A DNA stretch of 64,000 nucleotides from positions 152 to 64,151 of IMG/VR virus record IMGVR_UViG_3300046171_000216; one strand, written 5' to 3'. The notes under the pieces are model-generated. The model worked only from the letters and a program-made list of their open reading frames with translations, ran no database searches and was not told the DNA's origin. Of the stretch, positions 21,461 through 41,817 are shown piece by piece. Every line of letters begins with the position of its first letter. Positions within the stretch are counted from its first letter, which is position 1. The DNA is from a virus. Taxonomy: Duplodnaviria; Caudoviricetes. Both the position numbers and the translations under genes were made by a program.

Positions 21461-21631
21461 TTATATTGATATTCCCCTTTCTTCACGCAGTATCTTTTTA
21501 TAAGGTCCATCAGGATTTAAATCTCTGACTTCTTTTACTTCTTTCAAAAGATGATACAATCTAGCATCTCCTCCAAGAGAAAGAGCATTTACGATTGTTT
21601 CTAAATCGTTATCATTAATAGGTAATTCCAT
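21461..21631 (-). CDS. Small hypothetical protein (56 aa, not in the ORF track)
   Basis: MELPINDNDLETIVNALSLGGDARLYHLLKEV...; TAATG coupling to gp43. Confidence 0.65.
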   Translation of the reverse strand: MELPINDNDLETIVNALSLGGDARLYHLLKEVKEVRDLNPDGPYKKILREERGISI

Positions 21632-24132
21632 TAGGAAAAAAATAGTTCTAAGTTTACAGTTTTTTCAACATTCCACCCAATTGCATCTAAGATTGTTCTG
21701 AGTGGTTCAACAAAACTTTTGTCAAATTGTAAGTCATAATCGACATACTTTTCAAGGTCAAGTTCTCTAGGAAAATCTTGAATGAATGATATTACATTCT
21801 CTTGAATAATATTAGGTTTTTTCAAATAGAGAAATTTGACCTTTTCTCCATTTCCAATGAGTGAATACTTATTGTCAATCTTTTTCGCTTTCACATAATG
21901 ATTAAACAATAATGCACCCCGTATATGTATAGGAGTTCCCTTTGCATAGATTGTAGAATGTGCTTTATACTTCTGAACATTTGATGCAGTGCGAGGAAAT
22001 GCAATCTCTTCTGGTGGTAGTTTTTTGAATTGTTTTCGAGACTCATCAATGAAATCAATGACTTCTTCTTCAGTGCCATTCATCATTAACTTGAGTGCAC
22101 TTTTAATTAATGCACGACAAGGTGCAGGAGTTGAAGATTTAACTGCTTCAATACCCATCATCTTGAGATTTGGTTTTTCATATCGAACACCTTCACTATC
22201 CCATACATTTAAAATATATCTTTTCTTTGCTGTCCAGATGCCACGGTCTGCGATATTCTCTCGCTTCATTACCATCTTATTATCATAAGCATTTACGTAG
22301 TTCGCCAACGTTTCATAAGAACCCTCAATATACTTCTCAAATTCCACTTCACAGATCTTATTAAGGAACGACACAATGCTCGCAGCATTCTTTTCTCTGC
22401 CTTCGTATACCCTATCGACAAGATCACCCAAGTTGAGATAGATGCTGTCAGTATCACTAGCAATAACATAGTCTTCACCCTCCGTTTTTAGTATTTTGTT
22501 TAAGTATGCGTTCATTTTGTTTTCTATCCAACGAATAGAAACCTGCCCTGATAATGTAATTGCTTCCGCATTTGCTAATTTGTAATAGCGAAAATATTGA
22601 TTACCAATCGCACCATAGGCAGAATTAAGAGAAATCTTCTTTGCCATCTGGATATTATTACAACGGGCAATTTCCTTTTCAAGGTTTTTTGTAGGAGTCT
22701 TTTCATATGCCTTCTTTGCAGTAATCATCCTCTTCTTGAAGATAACTCTTTCGTTATACATCTTCTCCATCAACTCTGGTAAGAACCCACGAACATCTTT
22801 ACGATACATTGCACCATTTGCACAAACAGCATTATTCTTATACATCTCAAAAGTCAAATCTTCATTAAGGATTTTGTCAACTGTAACTGATGGATGTTTT
22901 GTATCCAATAAAGTTTCTGGAGAAATATTATATTGCATAATCAAATGCGGATATAGACTATTCAAGTCAAAAGAAACAACCCAATCATATTTGCCAGGTA
23001 TTGGTTCTTTTACATATGCACCAGCATACTTATCATTTTTATGTGACCTATTCTTTGGAGGTATAACAATATTCCTTCTCTTTAGATAATTGTAGATAAT
23101 CGTATCCCACATTCTTACCTGATAGAATACATCTTCATAATTTACCTTTGCATCATATGCCATCGTCAATGCAAGTTCAATCAACTTCATCTTATCCTCA
23201 AGACGGTCAACCAGTTCAACGTCAATGATGTTGTATTCTACAAACTTTTGCCAACCTTGAGTGTAGAAGTCTTTAAATGTATCAAATTCAGAGTGGTCAA
23301 GTTTCTTTTGTCCAAGTTCTACACTTGCAATATAATCCAAACGATATGACTCTTGTGCTTTGTAAGTAAACTTCTTATATAAGTCAAGATAATCTAACTG
23401 CGATACACCACCAATATCATAAGAAATTTGTTTACGTCCCATTATCGTAGTTTCTTCTTCAGTTACAAGACCCCAAGGTGACATTCTTTTCTTTAGTTTC
23501 TCACCAAGTATGCGGTCAATACGACGACAAAGATATGGAATATCATAAAACTTACTGTTCCAACCAGTAATAACTTCTGGTGTATTATCTTCTATCATCC
23601 ACCAGTTGATGAAATCTGTAAGAAGTTCATATTCTGTAGTAAATGATTTGTATATTACGTTCTCTTGTTTATTATTAAATGCCCCAAGACCCCAAGTGCG
23701 TATTTGTTTTGTTGTATAATCTTGTAATGAGATAAGTAATATTTCTTCTGCAGCAGATTCTACATCGGGGAATCCATATTCAGACTTTACCTCAATATCA
23801 ATTGTGGTTAATTTAATTTGTTCAATATCAAACTTTAATTCTTGCTCTGGATATTTGTCTGATATGTATTGATAGATAAATCTTTCATTACCATAGATAT
23901 TAAAGTTTTCAACCTCATTATAATTTTTTATAAAGTCTCTACATTCACGAACTGTACCAGGTTCAATTGGTTCAACGGGCAAACCATCAAGTGTTTTATA
24001 TTTTGTCTTTCTTTTTGAATCTACAAATAATGTTGGGTAGAACTTTTCACGAGTAGCAAAGTGTTTACCATCTTCATATCCACGAACCAAGAAATTATCT
24101 CCGACCATTTGGACGTTGGTATAAAATCTCAT
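21631..24132 (-). CDS. 43: Family B DNA polymerase (T4 gp43)
   Basis: DIE exonuclease motif, SFDLNSLYP, KISLNSAYG and SDTDS. Confidence 0.97.
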   Translation of the reverse strand: MRFYTNVQMVGDNFLVRGYEDGKHFATREKFYPTLFVDSKRKTKYKTLDGLPVEPIEPGTVRECRDFIKNYNEVENFNIYGNERFIYQYISDKYPEQELKFDIEQIKLTTIDIEVKSEYGFPDVESAAEEILLISLQDYTTKQIRTWGLGAFNNKQENVIYKSFTTEYELLTDFINWWMIEDNTPEVITGWNSKFYDIPYLCRRIDRILGEKLKKRMSPWGLVTEEETTIMGRKQISYDIGGVSQLDYLDLYKKFTYKAQESYRLDYIASVELGQKKLDHSEFDTFKDFYTQGWQKFVEYNIIDVELVDRLEDKMKLIELALTMAYDAKVNYEDVFYQVRMWDTIIYNYLKRRNIVIPPKNRSHKNDKYAGAYVKEPIPGKYDWVVSFDLNSLYPHLIMQYNISPETLLDTKHPSVTVDKILNEDLTFEMYKNNAVCANGAMYRKDVRGFLPELMEKMYNERVIFKKRMITAKKAYEKTPTKNLEKEIARCNNIQMAKKISLNSAYGAIGNQYFRYYKLANAEAITLSGQVSIRWIENKMNAYLNKILKTEGEDYVIASDTDSIYLNLGDLVDRVYEGREKNAASIVSFLNKICEVEFEKYIEGSYETLANYVNAYDNKMVMKRENIADRGIWTAKKRYILNVWDSEGVRYEKPNLKMMGIEAVKSSTPAPCRALIKSALKLMMNGTEEEVIDFIDESRKQFKKLPPEEIAFPRTASNVQKYKAHSTIYAKGTPIHIRGALLFNHYVKAKKIDNKYSLIGNGEKVKFLYLKKPNIIQENVISFIQDFPRELDLEKYVDYDLQFDKSFVEPLRTILDAIGWNVEKTVNLELFFS

Positions 24133-24380
24133 TACGTAGTTAGTTCAGTATATTTGTCTATAATTGTACCAGTTGGATCTGCAATCGTCAATATATCTTC
24201 TGACCTTATCATAAACTCTGTTTGATTTGTAATATCTGCTTTCCAAGGCACCATATCATCAATACCATTGTAAACGTATGGTTTAATCATTTTACAATTA
24301 GGATTACCTAATTCTGCATCAATTTCTATAATCTCTGCAATCAGAGTACAGTGAGCATTTAACATTACACATTTAATCAT
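24132..24380 (-). CDS. Hypothetical protein, Sm-like pattern
   Basis: IKCVML...LIAEI...IKPY...PW...IRSEDILTIADP. Confidence 0.55.
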   Translation of the reverse strand: MIKCVMLNAHCTLIAEIIEIDAELGNPNCKMIKPYVYNGIDDMVPWKADITNQTEFMIRSEDILTIADPTGTIIDKYTELTT

Positions 24381-24714
24381 TTCCTTCCTCCTTCAACTTA
24401 AACGATTCACATTTATCCTCATACATTTGAGTTACTGAATCAAGTGGTTCTACTATAGTTAGCACACTATCTATCGGTATAATCATTTTTTTATCTTTAG
24501 ATAAAACTACCCAAGGAATCATAGCGACATCAATTCCAAAATCTCCTCCTCTACTTTTATCTTCTTCAGTAACAAATTGTCTATCTTTTATTTCAATTAT
24601 ATGAGGATTTTCAAGCATGTATGCGTGTGCAACATCTTGACCTTCAGCAACTAATTCTTTCATTTCAGAGATTAGTTGTTCACCTGTTTTAAGTAAACTA
24701 ATTTTGATTGACAT
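24373..24714 (-). CDS. Hypothetical protein, Sm-like pattern
   Basis: KISLLKTGEQLIS...LENP...PW...IPIDSVLTIVEP. Confidence 0.6.
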   Translation of the reverse strand: MSIKISLLKTGEQLISEMKELVAEGQDVAHAYMLENPHIIEIKDRQFVTEEDKSRGGDFGIDVAMIPWVVLSKDKKMIIPIDSVLTIVEPLDSVTQMYEDKCESFKLKEEGND

Positions 24715-24730
24715 TTTTCTATCTAATTAA

Positions 24731-24800
24731 TTGGTAGATTCCTATAGCCGCTTATGCTGAACCTACCAAAGGGCATAACCGCAGCCAGTATTTCTCTGAC
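24731..24800 (-). ncRNA. Unassigned structured leader RNA (pseudoknot or switch)
   Basis: GUCAG/CUGGC hairpin; UUAUGC/GCAUAA stem whose loop UUGGUAGGUUC pairs over 11 nt with downstream GAAUCUACCAA. Confidence 0.6.
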
Positions 24801-24806
24801 AAATAT

Positions 24807-24835
24807 ATTATAGCACAACTTTTCCAATTGTCCAA
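24807..24835 (-). promoter_or_regulatory. Sigma70-type promoter with extended -10, in the purM 3' end
   Basis: TTGGACA...TG-C-TATAAT directly upstream of the structured leader. Confidence 0.6.
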
Positions 24836-26852: not shown

Positions 26853-26857
26853 AAAAA

Positions 26858-27043
26858 AGGAGGGAGGTTGGGTTCCTGTGTACCAACAAAAGATGGGCAT
26901 TACTACAGAGTAAATACATCTTTGCCTGAGACCCGACTGGTAAGTCGATTCTGCTTTCGCAGCAGCACCACCTGTGTCTCATCACCTTAACCAGCGATTG
27001 CCAGTAAGTTTATTCAGTCACTCCCATTGTTGCGTCCAACAAT
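26858..27043 (-). ncRNA. Large structured RNA, most likely the manA RNA motif
   Basis: About 185 nt non-coding; GGGAG/CUCCC closing stem plus UGAGAC/GUCUCA, CUGC-GAAA-GCAG, CGACU/AGUCG, AAAGAUG/CAUCUUU and GUUGG/CCAAC stems; family name is from recall, not a covariance-model search. Confidence 0.65.
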
Positions 27044-27074: not shown

Positions 27075-27511
27075 CCCTCCCCTTCTTCTTTCTTCTTTTT
27101 AGCACCAATATTATATTTCGTTTCTAAAATCCATTCACCTTTATCTTTAAATGATAACACTTTGATTTGATTAAGAGGTGCAATGTCTTGTATACGAACT
27201 ACATCGACCACACCAACCAATCCCCAATCAGCAAGAAGCTGAGCAATACGGTTGCGACGCTGAACATCGTTAGAAGTAAGGTTAGCGTGTTTTCCATCAA
27301 GAGCAAAAAGTTCTTTAAAGTGGACAAGATAATACCTCCCTTGCTTATGAAGTATGTGACAACTTTGATATATTTTCTTTTCTTTCCTACTTGCTACACC
27401 AATTCTTGTGAGAGTTTCTCTGACTTTCAGGAAATCATCTGGTTCATTCAATGTTACCTCCACCATTTGGTCGGGAGACCATGTGACGACAGGTTCTTTA
27501 ACAACACTCAT
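27071..27511 (-). CDS. regA: Translational repressor RegA
   Basis: DFLKVRETLTRIGVA, QSCHILHKQGRYYLVHFKELF. Confidence 0.96.
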   Translation of the reverse strand: MSVVKEPVVTWSPDQMVEVTLNEPDDFLKVRETLTRIGVASRKEKKIYQSCHILHKQGRYYLVHFKELFALDGKHANLTSNDVQRRNRIAQLLADWGLVGVVDVVRIQDIAPLNQIKVLSFKDKGEWILETKYNIGAKKKKEEGEG

Positions 27512-27888
27512 TTCGCTCCTCCAGTATCAAATTTAGATTTTATAAAGTTGAGTTGTTTTTTTGTCAGAATTTTCAAAGCTTGTTTTGCTTTTTCGTTACT
27601 ATAACCATAATAACGTTTCACATAATCAAGGTCTTTAATCATATCCTTACGAAGCCAAGGAGAGAATCTCTTCTTAGTTCTGAGAGTATTTATATAAAAG
27701 TCGTATTGCATCCGCTTTGGTAAGAAATTATACTTATTCATTTCGTTAGCAAAAAGGATTGCATCTAAGTGTCCTGAGAAACAACGATTGATTATGTATG
27801 GTGGATAATCTTTCTCTACTAGAGGATCTTCATCTATTAAATTTTTCTTTGTTTGGTTGATTGAGTTCAACCAGTCTTTCAGTTCCAT
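27508..27888 (-). CDS. 62: Clamp loader small subunit (T4 gp62)
   Basis: Start [11 protein letters not shown]; [13 protein letters not shown] and YYGYS; position before regA. Confidence 0.9.
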
Positions 27889-30637
27889 CTTCATTATCAA
27901 AATAGTTTTCACAAGAGCAGACAAGATTACGATCTCCATAAACATTGTCAATTCGTGATATCGCTGGCCAAAACTTATTTGTTTGATTGGCAGGATACGC
28001 TGCTTCATCACGACTATAATTATACACCCATTCATCTGAACTTACAACCTTTGCTGTATGGGGTGCGTTTTTCAAGATATCTTTATTCTTATCAATCTCT
28101 CTTCGGATACTTACCATTGCTGAACCAAATCTTTCAAGTTCTTCTAATGATTCACTTTCAGTTGGTTCTACCATTACTGTTCCTGTAACTGGCCAAGATA
28201 ATGTAGGTGCGTGAAAACCATAATCCATCAATCTCTTTGCCACATCTTCAGCACTAATACCATCAAAATATCGAACATCAAATATACATTCGTGTGCCAC
28301 TCTATCGTTTGCACCTTTATATAATACTTTGAAGAATGGTTCAATACGATGCACTAACCAGTTTGCAGTAAGTAAAGATATTTCACTTGCCTTTCTTAAT
28401 CCATCAGCACCCATCATTCTTATATACATCCAACTGATTGGAAGTATAGATGCACTACCTTGAATTGCTGCTGATACTCGATGGTTCATAAAAGGAACAA
28501 GATGTTCTGCAACACCAATAGGACCAACACCAGGACCACCACCACCGTGAGGAATACAGAATGTCTTATGTAAATTCATATGGCATACATCAATACCATA
28601 CTCACAAGGTTTTGCTAATCCGACTTGTGCATTTAGATTTGCACCATCAAGATATACCTGTCCACCACTCTCGTGAACAATTTTACAAATGTCCTTAATG
28701 GTTGGTTCAAATACACCGTGAGTTGATGGATATGTAATCATAATACAAGACAACTCAAGACAGTTCATAAGTGCTTGCTTTTCTAAATCCTTTAAATCTA
28801 TATTACCTTCTTCATCACATTTAACAGGAACAATCTTCATACCTGCCATCACTGCTGATGCAGGATTAGTTCCGTGTGCACTTGTAGGTATCAAACATAC
28901 ATTTCTTTTTGTATCACCATTACTTCTGTGATATTCTTGTATTGCAAGTAAACCTGCATACTCTCCCTGTGAACCTGCATTTGGTTGTAATGATACTTCT
29001 TCAAATCCAGTAATATCACATAACCATTCTTGTAAATCAAACATAATTCTTTGGTATCCAAGAGTTTGATTTTCTGGTGCGAATGGATGCATATTCGCAA
29101 ACTCATTCCAACTTACAGGCATAAGTTCTGATGCTGCATTTAATTTCATAGTACAACTTCCAAGTGGCATCATACCATTTACTAATGAGAAATCTTTTGA
29201 TACTAACTCATTAATGTATCTCATCATATTAGTTTCACTTTGATACTTATTGAAAACATCTTGTCTTAACCAAGGTTGTGTTCTCTCTGGAATATCTTTC
29301 CACTTGTATCTACCAACTGACTCAACAATATGATCAATACTATCACTTTTGTTTACTAAATCTTGTTGTGAATTAAGAATATCTTTTATCTCATCAAGAG
29401 TCGTAAGTTCATCTAAAGTAATGATAGTATGGTCATCTTCATAACGAACATTGTATCCTTCAACAGTAAGAAAACTTCTGAATCGCACTGTATCAAAACC
29501 TTCAGTATCATCTACCTCAATACCTAACCAGAATAATCCTTTTCTTAATATTTCACGATAAGTTAGAATACGATTTGCAATTCTTTTGAGTCCTTCTGCT
29601 CCGTGATATGCAGCATAAAATCCTGCCATATTTGCAAGTAGTGCTTGTGCTGTGCATATGTTAGATGTTGCCTTATCTCTTCTTATATGCTGCTCTCTAG
29701 TCTGTAGTGCCAATCGTAGTGCTTTGTTACCTTGAGCGTCTACAGACTGTCCTACTATCCTACCAGGTATTTTTCTTTTATACTTATCTGTTGTTGCAAA
29801 GAATGCTGCGTGTGGACCACCAAATCCCATTGGTACACCAAATCTTTGCATACTACCAACTGCAACATCAAAACCCATTTCACCTACAGGTTGCATAAGA
29901 ACCTGTGCTAATGGATCGACAATTGCAATCTTCATACACTTACAAACTTCTGCTAATCTTAATACTCCATCACGATGTCTTAAATTACCGTGACTATTTG
30001 GTAATTGTACAATGACTCCAAATGCATCAGAAAAGAAAGCGATTGGTATTGAACCATCAAAATCAATTTTAATGATATTAATTCCTAGTGGTCTTGCTCT
30101 TGTTTGTAATACTTCTAGTGTTTGTGGGAATATTTTATCATCAACTATAAAATCTTTCTTCTTACTTTGACTATGTGCAAGTAACATTGCTTCTGCTGCT
30201 GCAGTTCCTTCATCTAACAATGATGCATTTGCAACTGGTAATCCAGTAAGTTCTGTAATTAATGTTTGATAATTAAATAATGCTTCTAATCTACCCTGTG
30301 ATATCTCTGCCTGGTATGGAGTATAAGATGTATACCAAGCAGGATTTTCAAATACATTACGAAGAATTACTGATGGTGTAATTGTGCCATAGTATCCTTG
30401 ACCTATCAAACTTCTCTTAACAACATTATGACTTGCAATATCTTTTAATTCTGTAAGTGCCTGTTGCTCACTACATCCTTCTGGTAATTTACTATCACCA
30501 CGAAGTAAAATTGAATCAGGAACAATCTCTCTGACCAATTCATCTATAGTTGATAGACCAAGATCAGCAAGCATTTTGCGTTGTTCTGATTCTGATGGTC
30601 CGATATGACGTTGAATAAATTCTGACATATTACCCAT
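27830..30637 (-). CDS. gcvP: Glycine dehydrogenase (decarboxylating), glycine cleavage P protein
   Basis: [38 protein letters not shown]-lysine motif [20 protein letters not shown] and GDRNLVC. Confidence 0.97.
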
Positions 30638-39602: not shown

Positions 39603-41817
39603 TCAAGCTACCAATTCTATAAATTCACTTAATATCTTTTTATTCATCTTCTTACCCTTAAGACTTTTAGTAAATGCTCTCTTTATCTCTGCTTTAGTTG
39701 CATCTTCTTTAACTTCAAACTCTCCATCATTATTCAAAGCAGATGATGCCATACCAAAGTAAGTGTGATATCCAGATGTAGTGATTGCAAAAGACCTTTC
39801 CTTCTTCCAACGATGCATCATTTTTATTGATTCTGGAGTTTCATATCCACAATATCTACGAATGAATGAACCACCTTCACGACTTACAAGAACACGAATA
39901 CCAATGAAATTAGTTTGTGGGAAACTATCTTTTAGATTTTCAAGTAACATATCAGTTGCTTCATATCTACCAGAGTCTTTTGAAAGATAAGTCTTACCTA
40001 ACTTACGGTCACGCAATACACAACCATCACTAAAATAGTTTGTACCCATATATGGTTCATCTTCCCATTGTCTTTGAACCTCACGATGATAACGAAGTGG
40101 TTGACTTTCTCCATCAGTAAGCACAACACATTGTACTTTCTCTGCACCAGTTCTCTTTTGAAAATCAGGAAGTAATGTATGTAAAGTAACCATTGCTTCA
40201 TTCAAAGGTGTTCCAGATAATCTATATCCATATGGCACATCTAGGTAAGGTGTATTCATATTCCAAGCAAATATACACGCAGACCTCCAAATATTAATCA
40301 TTTGTGTATCTAAATCTTTTGACCTAGTTTGATTACTAAACATATTCAATAAAGCAAATTGGTTGTTGACTTCTGCCATCATATCCTTTGGTTCATAGAA
40401 AGTCTCTCCATTTGCATGCATAGCTGGTCTAGGATAGTCTGATGTAAATGCATATACATCATAAGGTATTTGAACTTTACGACAGAACCAGATTAGATTA
40501 TAGAGTTGCTTAAGAGTATCAAGTAAAACATTGTTCATTGAACCAGACCAATCAAGTATGAATACAAGTCCGTGATTCTTACCATCAGGAAGAACAGTAA
40601 CTTTCTTGAAAAGGTCTTCACTAAATTTGTAATTGATAAGTTTAGTTGTATCAAGAACACCAGTGCGACTTGTAGTAGCACGAGCATATGCAGATGCAGA
40701 CTTCTTACACTCAAACTCTTTGACAAGATAGTTTACTTCTTTCTGTGCAGACTTTTTGAATGCATAGAAGTCTTTATCTAATTCTGCAAATGGGTCATAA
40801 GATTCTGGGATTCTATCAGGATTGCAAAGTGAAGTAAAGTAGTTTGGATTTTCTTTGAACTGTTTTTGTATTCTCCAATTTAAATTAGTCCAATGCTCAT
40901 CAAATGCTTTATGTACTTTTTCATTTGAGATTACTACTTTTTTGATATCTACCTTTGGCAATTCAATGTAATGATTCTCACGAGTACCTTTGTTTACTAA
41001 ATCTTTGAGTGCTTCATCAAGTGCATCCATAGTCTCAACTTCTGGTTCTTGTGGTTCTTCAAGTGCCTGAGTGCCACCACTGATTTTATCCATCATATTT
41101 TCAATCTCTTCAAGTGTTGGTTCTTGAGATTGTGGTTTCTGATAATCTAAATCTACTTCTTCCTCAGACTCTCCTGATTCTCCTGTAGGTGTACCACTTA
41201 AACCTTCATCACCTAAGTCTATACCCATATCATTTTCTACTTCTTCTCTCTCCTTTCTATCTTCTTCTATCTTCTGCTTTGTTAAATCATATAATTGCTT
41301 TGCAAGAACAAGGACTTCATCAAATGTCTCTGCTAATTCAATCTTACTTACAAGTAAATTCTCTTCAATATCAAAGTCAATATCTACAAAGTGACCAATC
41401 TTGAAGTGTAGATTAACTCTATCTGCAAGGTTTAACTCATCTAGGTCTTTGTTTTCAATCTCAAAGAAATCCTTATCTGATAATTCGTGGTATGCATTAT
41501 AGAATGTCTTGTTTAAGTCCTTCATATCTTCTCTTGATTAACTTTTCAATACGTGCATCTTCAACAACATTAACAAACTGTTGAGGTACTTTTACCTCTT
41601 TCCACCACTCTGTATCAGGTGTGTAGAGTGCGTGTCCAACTTCGTGACCAACTAACATATCAATCACTCCGTTACTTGCTTTCTCCCACATCGGAAGTGT
41701 AAGTACACGAGTTTGTACATTGAACTGTGCTGTTTCGACTTGCTTGTGCTCAACTACAATGTCTTCTGTGGCAAGTAACTTAGCAAGTTGTGATTTGATT
41801 TCGTGTTGGACTGTCAT
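39603..41817 (-). CDS. Metallopeptidase-like/vWA protein (CobT-like MoxR partner), frameshift near 41520
   Basis: GHEVGHALYT...NVVEDARIE at the N-terminus; MIDAS motifs LDWSGSM, GTPLNE and VLTDGE. Confidence 0.85.

Follow-up and report, generated by a model that had tools for sequence, protein, structure and literature searches.

A small promoter-coupled pseudoknot RNA carried as an optional unit by marine cyanophages

Introduction

The mRNA of T4 gene 32 begins with an H-type pseudoknot at its 5′ end, followed by an A/U-rich unstructured leader that runs to the start codon, and the structure serves as an autogenous operator. The putL and putR RNAs of phage HK022 are antiterminators of ~70 nt, each made of two hairpins, that lie behind early promoters, are indifferent to what is downstream, and have a host machine as their target; they modify the transcribing polymerase, and their activity is established. 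The PeSL (promoter-early stem-loop) cassettes of T4-type phages are present in many copies and share no conserved RNA fold, and stable RNAs are encoded in the T4 tRNA cluster.

Marine cyanophages carry two conserved structured RNAs of unknown function, manA (RF01745) and wcaG (RF01761), ahead of mixed auxiliary genes, according to PMC2864571. The cyanophage RNAs named in the available parts of PMC2864571 and PMC12197685 are manA, wcaG, PhotoRC-II, glnA, abiF, and CfrI, none of which is the element described here. The pseudoknot at the 5′ end of the gene 32 mRNA is likewise treated in PMC10690425, as a structure without an Rfam model.

Here we describe an element that is one copy of a family of roughly 70-nt cyanophage RNAs, each consisting of a variable hairpin (P1) followed by an H-type pseudoknot. 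Like the gene 32 leader, it joins a 5′ H-type pseudoknot to an A/U-rich leader that ends at a start codon, but the protein that binds the gene 32 knot is invariably encoded by the mRNA carrying it, whereas the element stands on many unrelated cargos, tRNAs included. It resembles the HK022 put RNAs in being promoter-proximal whatever the cargo; it differs in being a pseudoknot and in being known here from sequence alone, and the second promoter found in S-SKS1-type loci does not fit the put scheme. With the PeSL cassettes and the T4 tRNA cluster it shares a terminator hairpin and an early promoter ahead of it and the location of some copies within tRNA clusters, but it is single-copy and its fold covaries. 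Finally, it is, like manA and wcaG, a structured cyanophage RNA ahead of mixed genes, but it has no sequence or structure match to them, is smaller, forms a pseudoknot, is fixed to a putative transcription start, and also precedes tRNAs. The element is real, widespread, and uncatalogued with respect to Rfam 15, and it is an optional portable unit rather than a switch of the DNA polymerase operon.

Results

The locus and its promoter

The window, that is, the whole stretch of DNA analyzed, is a 64-kb fragment (64,000 nt) of an uncultured T4-like cyanophage from an IMG/VR record, 34% complete by CheckV. Its closest cultured relatives are the Salacisavirus phages P-SSM2 and P-SSM5. The genes of the minus strand run in the order regA, manA RNA, DUF2997, DUF1257, hsp20, purM, the element, DUF6561a, DUF6561b, gp43, and uvsX. 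The features of the element and of the genes behind it are as follows.

24829..24834, minus strand: -35 hexamer TGGACA, with a 16-nt spacer to TATAAT; the promoter scores 11/12 plus the TG extension
24807..24815, minus strand: extended -10 box TGcTATAAT (TG 24815-24814, TATAAT 24812-24807)
24800..24800, minus strand: putative transcription start at the first G of P1, placed by the -10 spacing
24784..24800, minus strand: P1 hairpin GUCAG-AGAAAUA-CUGGC (GUCAG 24800-24796, loop 24795-24789, CUGGC 24788-24784)
24779..24783, minus strand: UGC and GG bulge, both invariant (102/102); UGC can pair with GCG at 24749-24751
24773..24778, minus strand: P2 5′ strand UUAUGC; four covarying pairs, helix 99.8% paired
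24759..24772, minus strand: P2 loop CC(U) and pseudoknot 5′ strand UUGGUAGGUUC (24769-24759), a 15-nt P2 loop together with A24758
24752..24758, minus strand: invariant A24758 and P2 3′ strand GCAUAA (24757-24752), as in the core alignment
24742..24751, minus strand: GCGG and the near-invariant linker CUAUAG; GCGGC, A, A, and G do not vary, and GCGGC is followed by U or G
24731..24741, minus strand: pseudoknot 3′ strand (tail) GAAUCUACCAA; 9 bp conserved, 24733-24741
24715..24730, minus strand: A/U-rich spacer of 16 nt with the ribosome-binding region; sequence not conserved, AUG at 24714
24373..24714, minus strand: DUF6561a gene, 113 aa, predicted Sm/LSm-like fold
24132..24380, minus strand: DUF6561b gene, 82 aa (PF20198, 99.8 bits)
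21631..24132, minus strand: gp43-type DNA polymerase gene, whose homologues are annotated as DNA polymerase; probably cargo on the element's transcript

A full-length manA RNA (RF01745, 189.1 bits) lies at 26857-27042 on the minus strand, between regA and the DUF2997/DUF1257/hsp20/purM genes and 2 kb from the element, so that two different orphan structured RNAs are found within 2.3 kb of one cyanophage. In a 231-kb genome (G001), the element has a wcaG RNA at a distance of 1.3 kb (93.7 bits; L132 507-600, minus strand), accompanied by a weaker wcaG-like match. The window also holds a full-length gene for the glycine cleavage system P-protein (935 aa; 27830-30637, minus strand; GDC-P 566.5 bits, and GcvP2_C), an unusual auxiliary metabolic gene in a cyanophage. 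It sits amid clamp-loader and regA replication genes, and its 3′ end overlaps a clamp-loader-like ORF (27508-28035).

A strong sigma-70-type promoter stands at a fixed distance ahead of the element. A preliminary description of the window had read a TGn-TATAAT box here, and we find it at 24815-24807 of the minus strand with a matching -35 hexamer, TGGACA; the -10 box overlaps the purM stop codon TAA (24810-24808). A -10-like hexamer is present, at any spacing, in 121 of 134 unique contexts; it reads TATAAT in 110 of the 121 and is preceded by TG in 97 of them. The -10 box ends 5-6 nt upstream of P1 in 119 of the 134 contexts (6 nt in 110, 5 nt in nine). In the cultured phage S-SKS1 the element's promoter is a perfect TTGACA-17-TATAAT (12/12 consensus). 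Runs of at least five T's occur upstream of the element in 54/134 contexts. From the fixed spacing between the -10 box and P1 we infer that transcription starts at the first G of P1; an early transcript would then begin with the knot itself.

The fold in the window

All the segments listed in the preliminary description are present on the minus strand between 24731 and 24834. The P1 hairpin is read at 24800-24784, and a hairpin of at least 4 bp is kept at this place in 127 of the 134 contexts; the P2 stem UUAUGC/GCAUAA is likewise read in the window and is maintained by compensating changes across 102 distinct cores. The pairing between loop and tail had been put at 11 nt with one G-U, and this describes the window correctly (24741-24731 with 24769-24759), but the family keeps only 9 bp: The 10th pair holds in 67/100 sequences and the 11th in 20/102. 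The tail does end 16 nt upstream of the AUG, the spacer being 24730-24715.

Folding of the single sequence gives a minimum free energy of −22.8 kcal/mol (z = −1.29), which is not significant, 24 of 200 shuffles folding equally well. Judged by the loop lengths usual in H-type knots, 6 nt is little for a linker that has to cross a 10-bp stem. The invariance of UGC/GCG in 102/102 cores means that pairing between these bases is neither supported nor refuted.

Two other interpretations of the region were rejected. The pseudoknot helix does not behave as a terminator, the U-run after the helix not being conserved, and a small ORF within the element was discarded since its AUG, in P2, occurs in the window only and is not conserved. 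No terminator was found downstream from the knot.

Homologues and covariation

When 50,697 phage records were searched by blastn, P-SSM2, P-SSM5, and a marine single-cell virus matched at 89-91% identity over nothing but the element's 92 nt (window 24823-24732), and the flanking genes had no DNA-level match. In these three the element lies between hsp20 and a gene that differs from the one in the window. Two pattern scans of IMG/VR gave 117 and at least 119 stretches, the first set including three chance matches (L007, L101, and L117). From all loci, among the matches listed, we extracted 190 instances with 102 distinct 55-nt cores (alignment A2).

The preliminary description had proposed a covariation check on collected homologues, and the outcome favors the fold: P1, P2, and the pseudoknot are all kept by compensating changes in the 102 distinct homologues. 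The P2 helix is 99.8% paired, and its four covarying positions show four, six, three, and four pair types (AU/GU/UA/GC, 33/29/29/11; AU/CG/UA/UG/GU/GC; UA/CG/UG; CG/GC/UA/UG). The pseudoknot helix keeps 9 bp, with one position alternating between GU, GC, AU, and UA (41/40/13/8) and another between GC, AU, and GU (84/8/5). Paired cells make up 94.3% of the observed alignment, compared with 86.0% in shuffles and 27%-51% when the partners are slid, and none of 500 shuffles matches the observed value on any of five measures. RNAalifold independently selects the 9-bp pseudoknot helix, and a narrower alignment (A1) agrees with A2 on the pairing. We discounted three of 10 pairs with double changes (pseudoknot 23-53, 24-52, and 25-51), which include or rest wholly on two misaligned rows (L196 and L197). 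The phages in these rows have lost one base from each pseudoknot strand, which is itself a compensating change.

P1 is more variable. In the 127 contexts with a hairpin of at least 4 bp, it always closes with G-C, and its second pair is U-G (61), U-A (47), or C-G (18); between clades the stems are wholly different (GUUGA/UCAAC, GUUGUU/AACAAC, GUCGU/ACGAC, and others), and their length and loops vary as well. In the core, 28 of the 55 positions are invariant in the 102 distinct sequences, many of them unpaired, which argues for a specific binding partner; little or no variation is seen in UGC/GCG, the GG bulge, the CC, the A, and the CKAUAG linker. This very high conservation is partly a matter of selection, because the loci were found with patterns drawn from the element.

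Two observations on P1 were made along the way. Its second base (U or C) covaries with the base after GCGGC (U or G), at A1 columns 4 and 58 (window 24799 and 24746): By eye, in alignment A1, 16 of 73 sequences have C with G, two U with G, and 55 U with U. This may be a tertiary contact or merely shared ancestry. In one clade (L126, L138, L149, L188, L134, and L155) the P1 loop contains CGCUACCU, which repeats the pseudoknot 3′ strand; it could possibly compete for the GGUAG of the P2 loop, as a clade-specific alternative pairing that is absent from the window.

Alternative pairing and known RNA families

The fold has one property of a riboswitch, being conserved, covarying, and aptamer-like. 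It had also been proposed that the stem can be extended by GGCUGC/GCGGCU at the expense of P1, so that two folds compete. The extension can indeed be drawn in the window, but it is not conserved in homologues: Its outer pair fails in 18/73 sequences, and the next base is an A opposite an invariant C in 47/127 contexts, while the same base always pairs within P1 (U-G, U-A, or C-G). As to an expression platform, we found no conserved alternative pairing with a terminator or a ribosome-binding site, and the knot stops 16 nt short of the AUG. Nor are the downstream genes functionally coherent, as those of a riboswitch would be (DUF6561, purM, pstS-like, membrane, HAD-like, tRNA-Pro, and tRNA-Arg).

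The earlier failure to place the element in a riboswitch family holds up. Rfam 15 has no match at the gathering score, and none of 10 sequences (the window and nine members) has an overlapping match at E up to 10. A tRNA or tRNA-like gene was not detected either, with no ARAGORN call over the element in 191 segments and no Rfam tRNA match in 10 members. A description of the motif was not found in the available parts of PMC2864571, PMC10690425, and PMC12197685; the element may be among the 8,495 unnamed IMG/VR candidate RNAs of PMC10690425 or among motifs of PMC2864571 such as "Ocean-VI", which has no Rfam entry.

A compact pseudoknot with invariant junction bases, in some phages next to tRNAs, could be a small self-cleaving ribozyme or another catalytic RNA, acting in 5′-end processing of its transcript. 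Yet the 10 members match no Rfam ribozyme family at E up to 10, the sequence directly past the knot is not conserved, and no conserved candidate cleavage dinucleotide was recognized, and we consider catalysis very improbable.

Copy number, spread, and optional presence

With the core model, the window yields a single copy (81.6 bits; the next match scores 9.2 bits), as does each of four whole genomes (P-SSM2, S-SM2, ACG-2014f, and the complete 231-kb IMG/VR genome), which separates the element from the many-copied PeSL cassettes. Two divergent queries of the phage collection each hit 55 records, at one place per record (55/55 for both). The matched records all belong to marine single-cell viruses or to phages of Synechococcus or Prochlorococcus, in several genera; carriers include P-SSM2, P-SSM5, S-SM2, Bellamy, SynMITS9220M01, S-SCSM2R, S-B05, S-B43, RB11-B, S-H68, ACG-2014f, and S-SKS1 (genus Llyrvirus). 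Cellular genomes, screened with a loose gapped pattern, gave 119 matches that we examined among the matches listed, and one looked real: an 832-nt MAG contig (L292) in which the element is followed by tRNA-Pro and which is probably phage. Contigs with the element, some with foreign flanks, are present in four RNA-library runs, and one spans the promoter; these are contigs only, carrying no information on ends, strand, or level.

One 45.8-kb IMG/VR fragment has two identical inverted copies 8.5 kb apart (G002:C1:31774-31828, plus strand, and 40299-40353, minus strand; L321 and L323), with 110 nt upstream and 170 nt downstream also identical, which reflects a genuine inverted duplication or else an error of assembly. 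In 151 genomes of the host family the core model gave two weak matches (30.8 bits), both lacking the 17-nt loop and antisense to an ORF, which we judged to be chance.

For an unbiased sample we used 80 IMG/VR loci picked by their gp43, 79%-98% identical to that of the window. Of the 64 with at least 800 nt upstream, 10 carry the element. It was also missing, at E up to 0.1, from five of five complete Kyanoviridae genomes that keep hsp20, DUF6561a, DUF6561b, and gp43 (S-SRM01, P-TIM68, S-SCSM1, S-SSM7, and B3), with positive controls detected in 5/5. Element-less loci, for example L453, L455, L456, L458, and L486, retain the same terminator hairpin, T-run, and TATAAT box, and their leader runs straight from the promoter into DUF6561a in about 16-25 nt (by eye). 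The element is thus a ~72-nt insertion with the promoter directly on one side and an ordinary short leader on the other. In S-SSM7 a tRNA-Gly occupies its spot.

Downstream genes

The element always heads whatever comes next, be it an mRNA, a tRNA, or a second promoter. Among the matches listed (191 instances), at least 20 unrelated gene types follow it. A DUF6561a-type gene comes next, at 16-19 nt, in 82 of these 191, a share that is biased upward because the first search pattern came from the window; other next genes in the same set are a 73-aa phrog_552 protein (22), the PSSM2_175 type of P-SSM2 (14), and purM (five), and further N-termini resemble, by eye only, PstS, HAD phosphatase, and small membrane proteins. 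In 11 of the 191 instances listed, tRNA-Pro or tRNA-Arg begins 3-4 nt past the knot, and in S-SM2 the element lies within a tRNA cluster. In S-SKS1-type loci a second promoter, TTGACT-17-TATAAT, separates the element from the gene, and in L184 and L185 the next ORF on the same strand is 250-300 nt away. Where genes follow, the start codon falls 14-22 nt past the knot in about 10 unrelated families, which would fit a leader that acts on translation as well.

On the minus strand of L185, 80-330 nt past the element, lies a stretch of ~300 nt that is poor in ORFs and has both G-rich repeats (uuuuggagggu-like) and strong predicted hairpins; it may be another noncoding RNA.

The idea that the element is a regulator belonging to the Sm-like-gp43 operon is not supported by these data: Most close gp43 loci lack it (10/64 carry it), and elsewhere it precedes tRNAs, purM, pstS-like genes, or a second promoter. 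The Sm-like label given to the downstream gene itself is borne out. The predicted model of DUF6561a (pLDDT 81.3) is an Sm/LSm-like β-barrel, and its best structure match is PDB 3BY7, a marine metagenome protein (TM 0.94 normalized to the target, E 2.6e-6, 22% identity). DUF6561 is encoded in all five carrier genomes tested, and a link between the element and a DUF6561 protein may exist on that count; as an obligate partner, DUF6561 was rejected, since it is also present in 5/5 non-carriers. A search for any phage gene that tracks the element, among the 456 S-SKS1 ORFs of at least 45 aa (blastp, E up to 1e-4; a small sample of five carriers and five non-carriers), returned none that was in all four other carriers and in at most one of the five non-carriers.

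These results bear on a cis-acting sensor, in which the knot, as an aptamer or a protein operator, would govern through its folding state how the gene starting 16 nt further on is translated, a candidate being autogenous control by the Sm-like protein, as by gp32 at its 5′ pseudoknot. Such a sensor would account for the near-invariant, aptamer-like unpaired bases, the 5′-terminal pseudoknot with an A/U-rich leader to the AUG, the Sm/LSm-like fold of the protein encoded next, the 82 DUF6561a and five purM genes among the 191 instances listed, and the presence of DUF6561 in 5/5 carriers tested. It fares badly in that the alternative pairing is not conserved, the ribosome-binding region does not overlap the knot, the cargo has no common function, and a tRNA (11/191 among the matches listed) or a second promoter can directly follow. 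Moreover, 54 of the 64 close loci and 5/5 complete genomes have the operon without the element, examples keeping the same promoter and leader. An autogenous operator in particular should always be on the mRNA of its binding protein, which neither the cargo survey nor the gp43 loci show. We regard the sensor as unlikely.

A generic cis-acting expression module would be an RNA that stays on the transcript and either shields its 5′ end from RNase E/J or modifies the transcribing polymerase. A hairpin at the inferred +1 without a 5′ overhang, in a position independent of the kind of cargo, would suit such a module, and a host target common to all carriers would explain conservation across phage genera. 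On the other hand, a general enhancer should be reused, whereas there is one copy per genome; a simple stabilizer has no need of 28 invariant positions; and no terminators for read-through were identified. In S-SKS1-type loci, the second promoter makes the cargo independent of the element, and RNase P cleavage would detach the element from a tRNA. This module, too, seems improbable to us.

Discussion

A fixed promoter, a single copy, optional presence, movement between lineages, any cargo, and invariant unpaired bases are better accounted for by an RNA with a role of its own than by a regulator of one operon. The explanation we tentatively prefer is a self-contained early RNA: It would supply the 5′ end for whatever comes behind it, act either after release or as a 5′ domain, and bind a conserved partner. 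Such an RNA would be an entity of its own, a stable 5′ domain that RNase P, where the cargo is a tRNA, or a cut within the A/U-rich spacer could set free; the lack of a terminator past the knot counts against this explanation, since a free RNA would need processing. The partner would be conserved across marine picocyanobacteria or their phages and might be a small ligand or a protein, the latter either a core phage protein or one of the host, such as RNA polymerase or a ribonuclease. In the window, the element would merely ride on the promoter of the operon of two Sm-like genes and gp43.

A more specific proposal, which we hold to be rather doubtful, is that the knot is a trans-acting RNA, made in bulk from a consensus early promoter and trimmed, that works as an aptamer-like decoy or effector on a conserved picocyanobacterial machine or signal. 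Its targets might be RNA polymerase, a ribonuclease, a defence sensor, or a metabolite, and, like a moron, it would pass from one cyanophage lineage to another.

The T4-like cyanophages, which rank with the most abundant viruses of the sea, influence how carbon and nutrients pass through Prochlorococcus and Synechococcus. An RNA that is strongly conserved, coupled to a promoter, present once per genome, passed between their lineages, and missing from RNA catalogues points to an unstudied layer of early infection control. Close relatives with and without the element behind the same promoter provide natural controls, cultured carriers exist (P-SSM2, S-SM2, S-SKS1, Bellamy, and others), and the knot is small enough for structure determination. 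Were the element shown to be a riboswitch, it would found a new class; were it shown to be a free effector RNA, phages would have a tool of a new kind. Should the trans-acting proposal prove true, it would be an RNA-only factor of host takeover or counter-defence.
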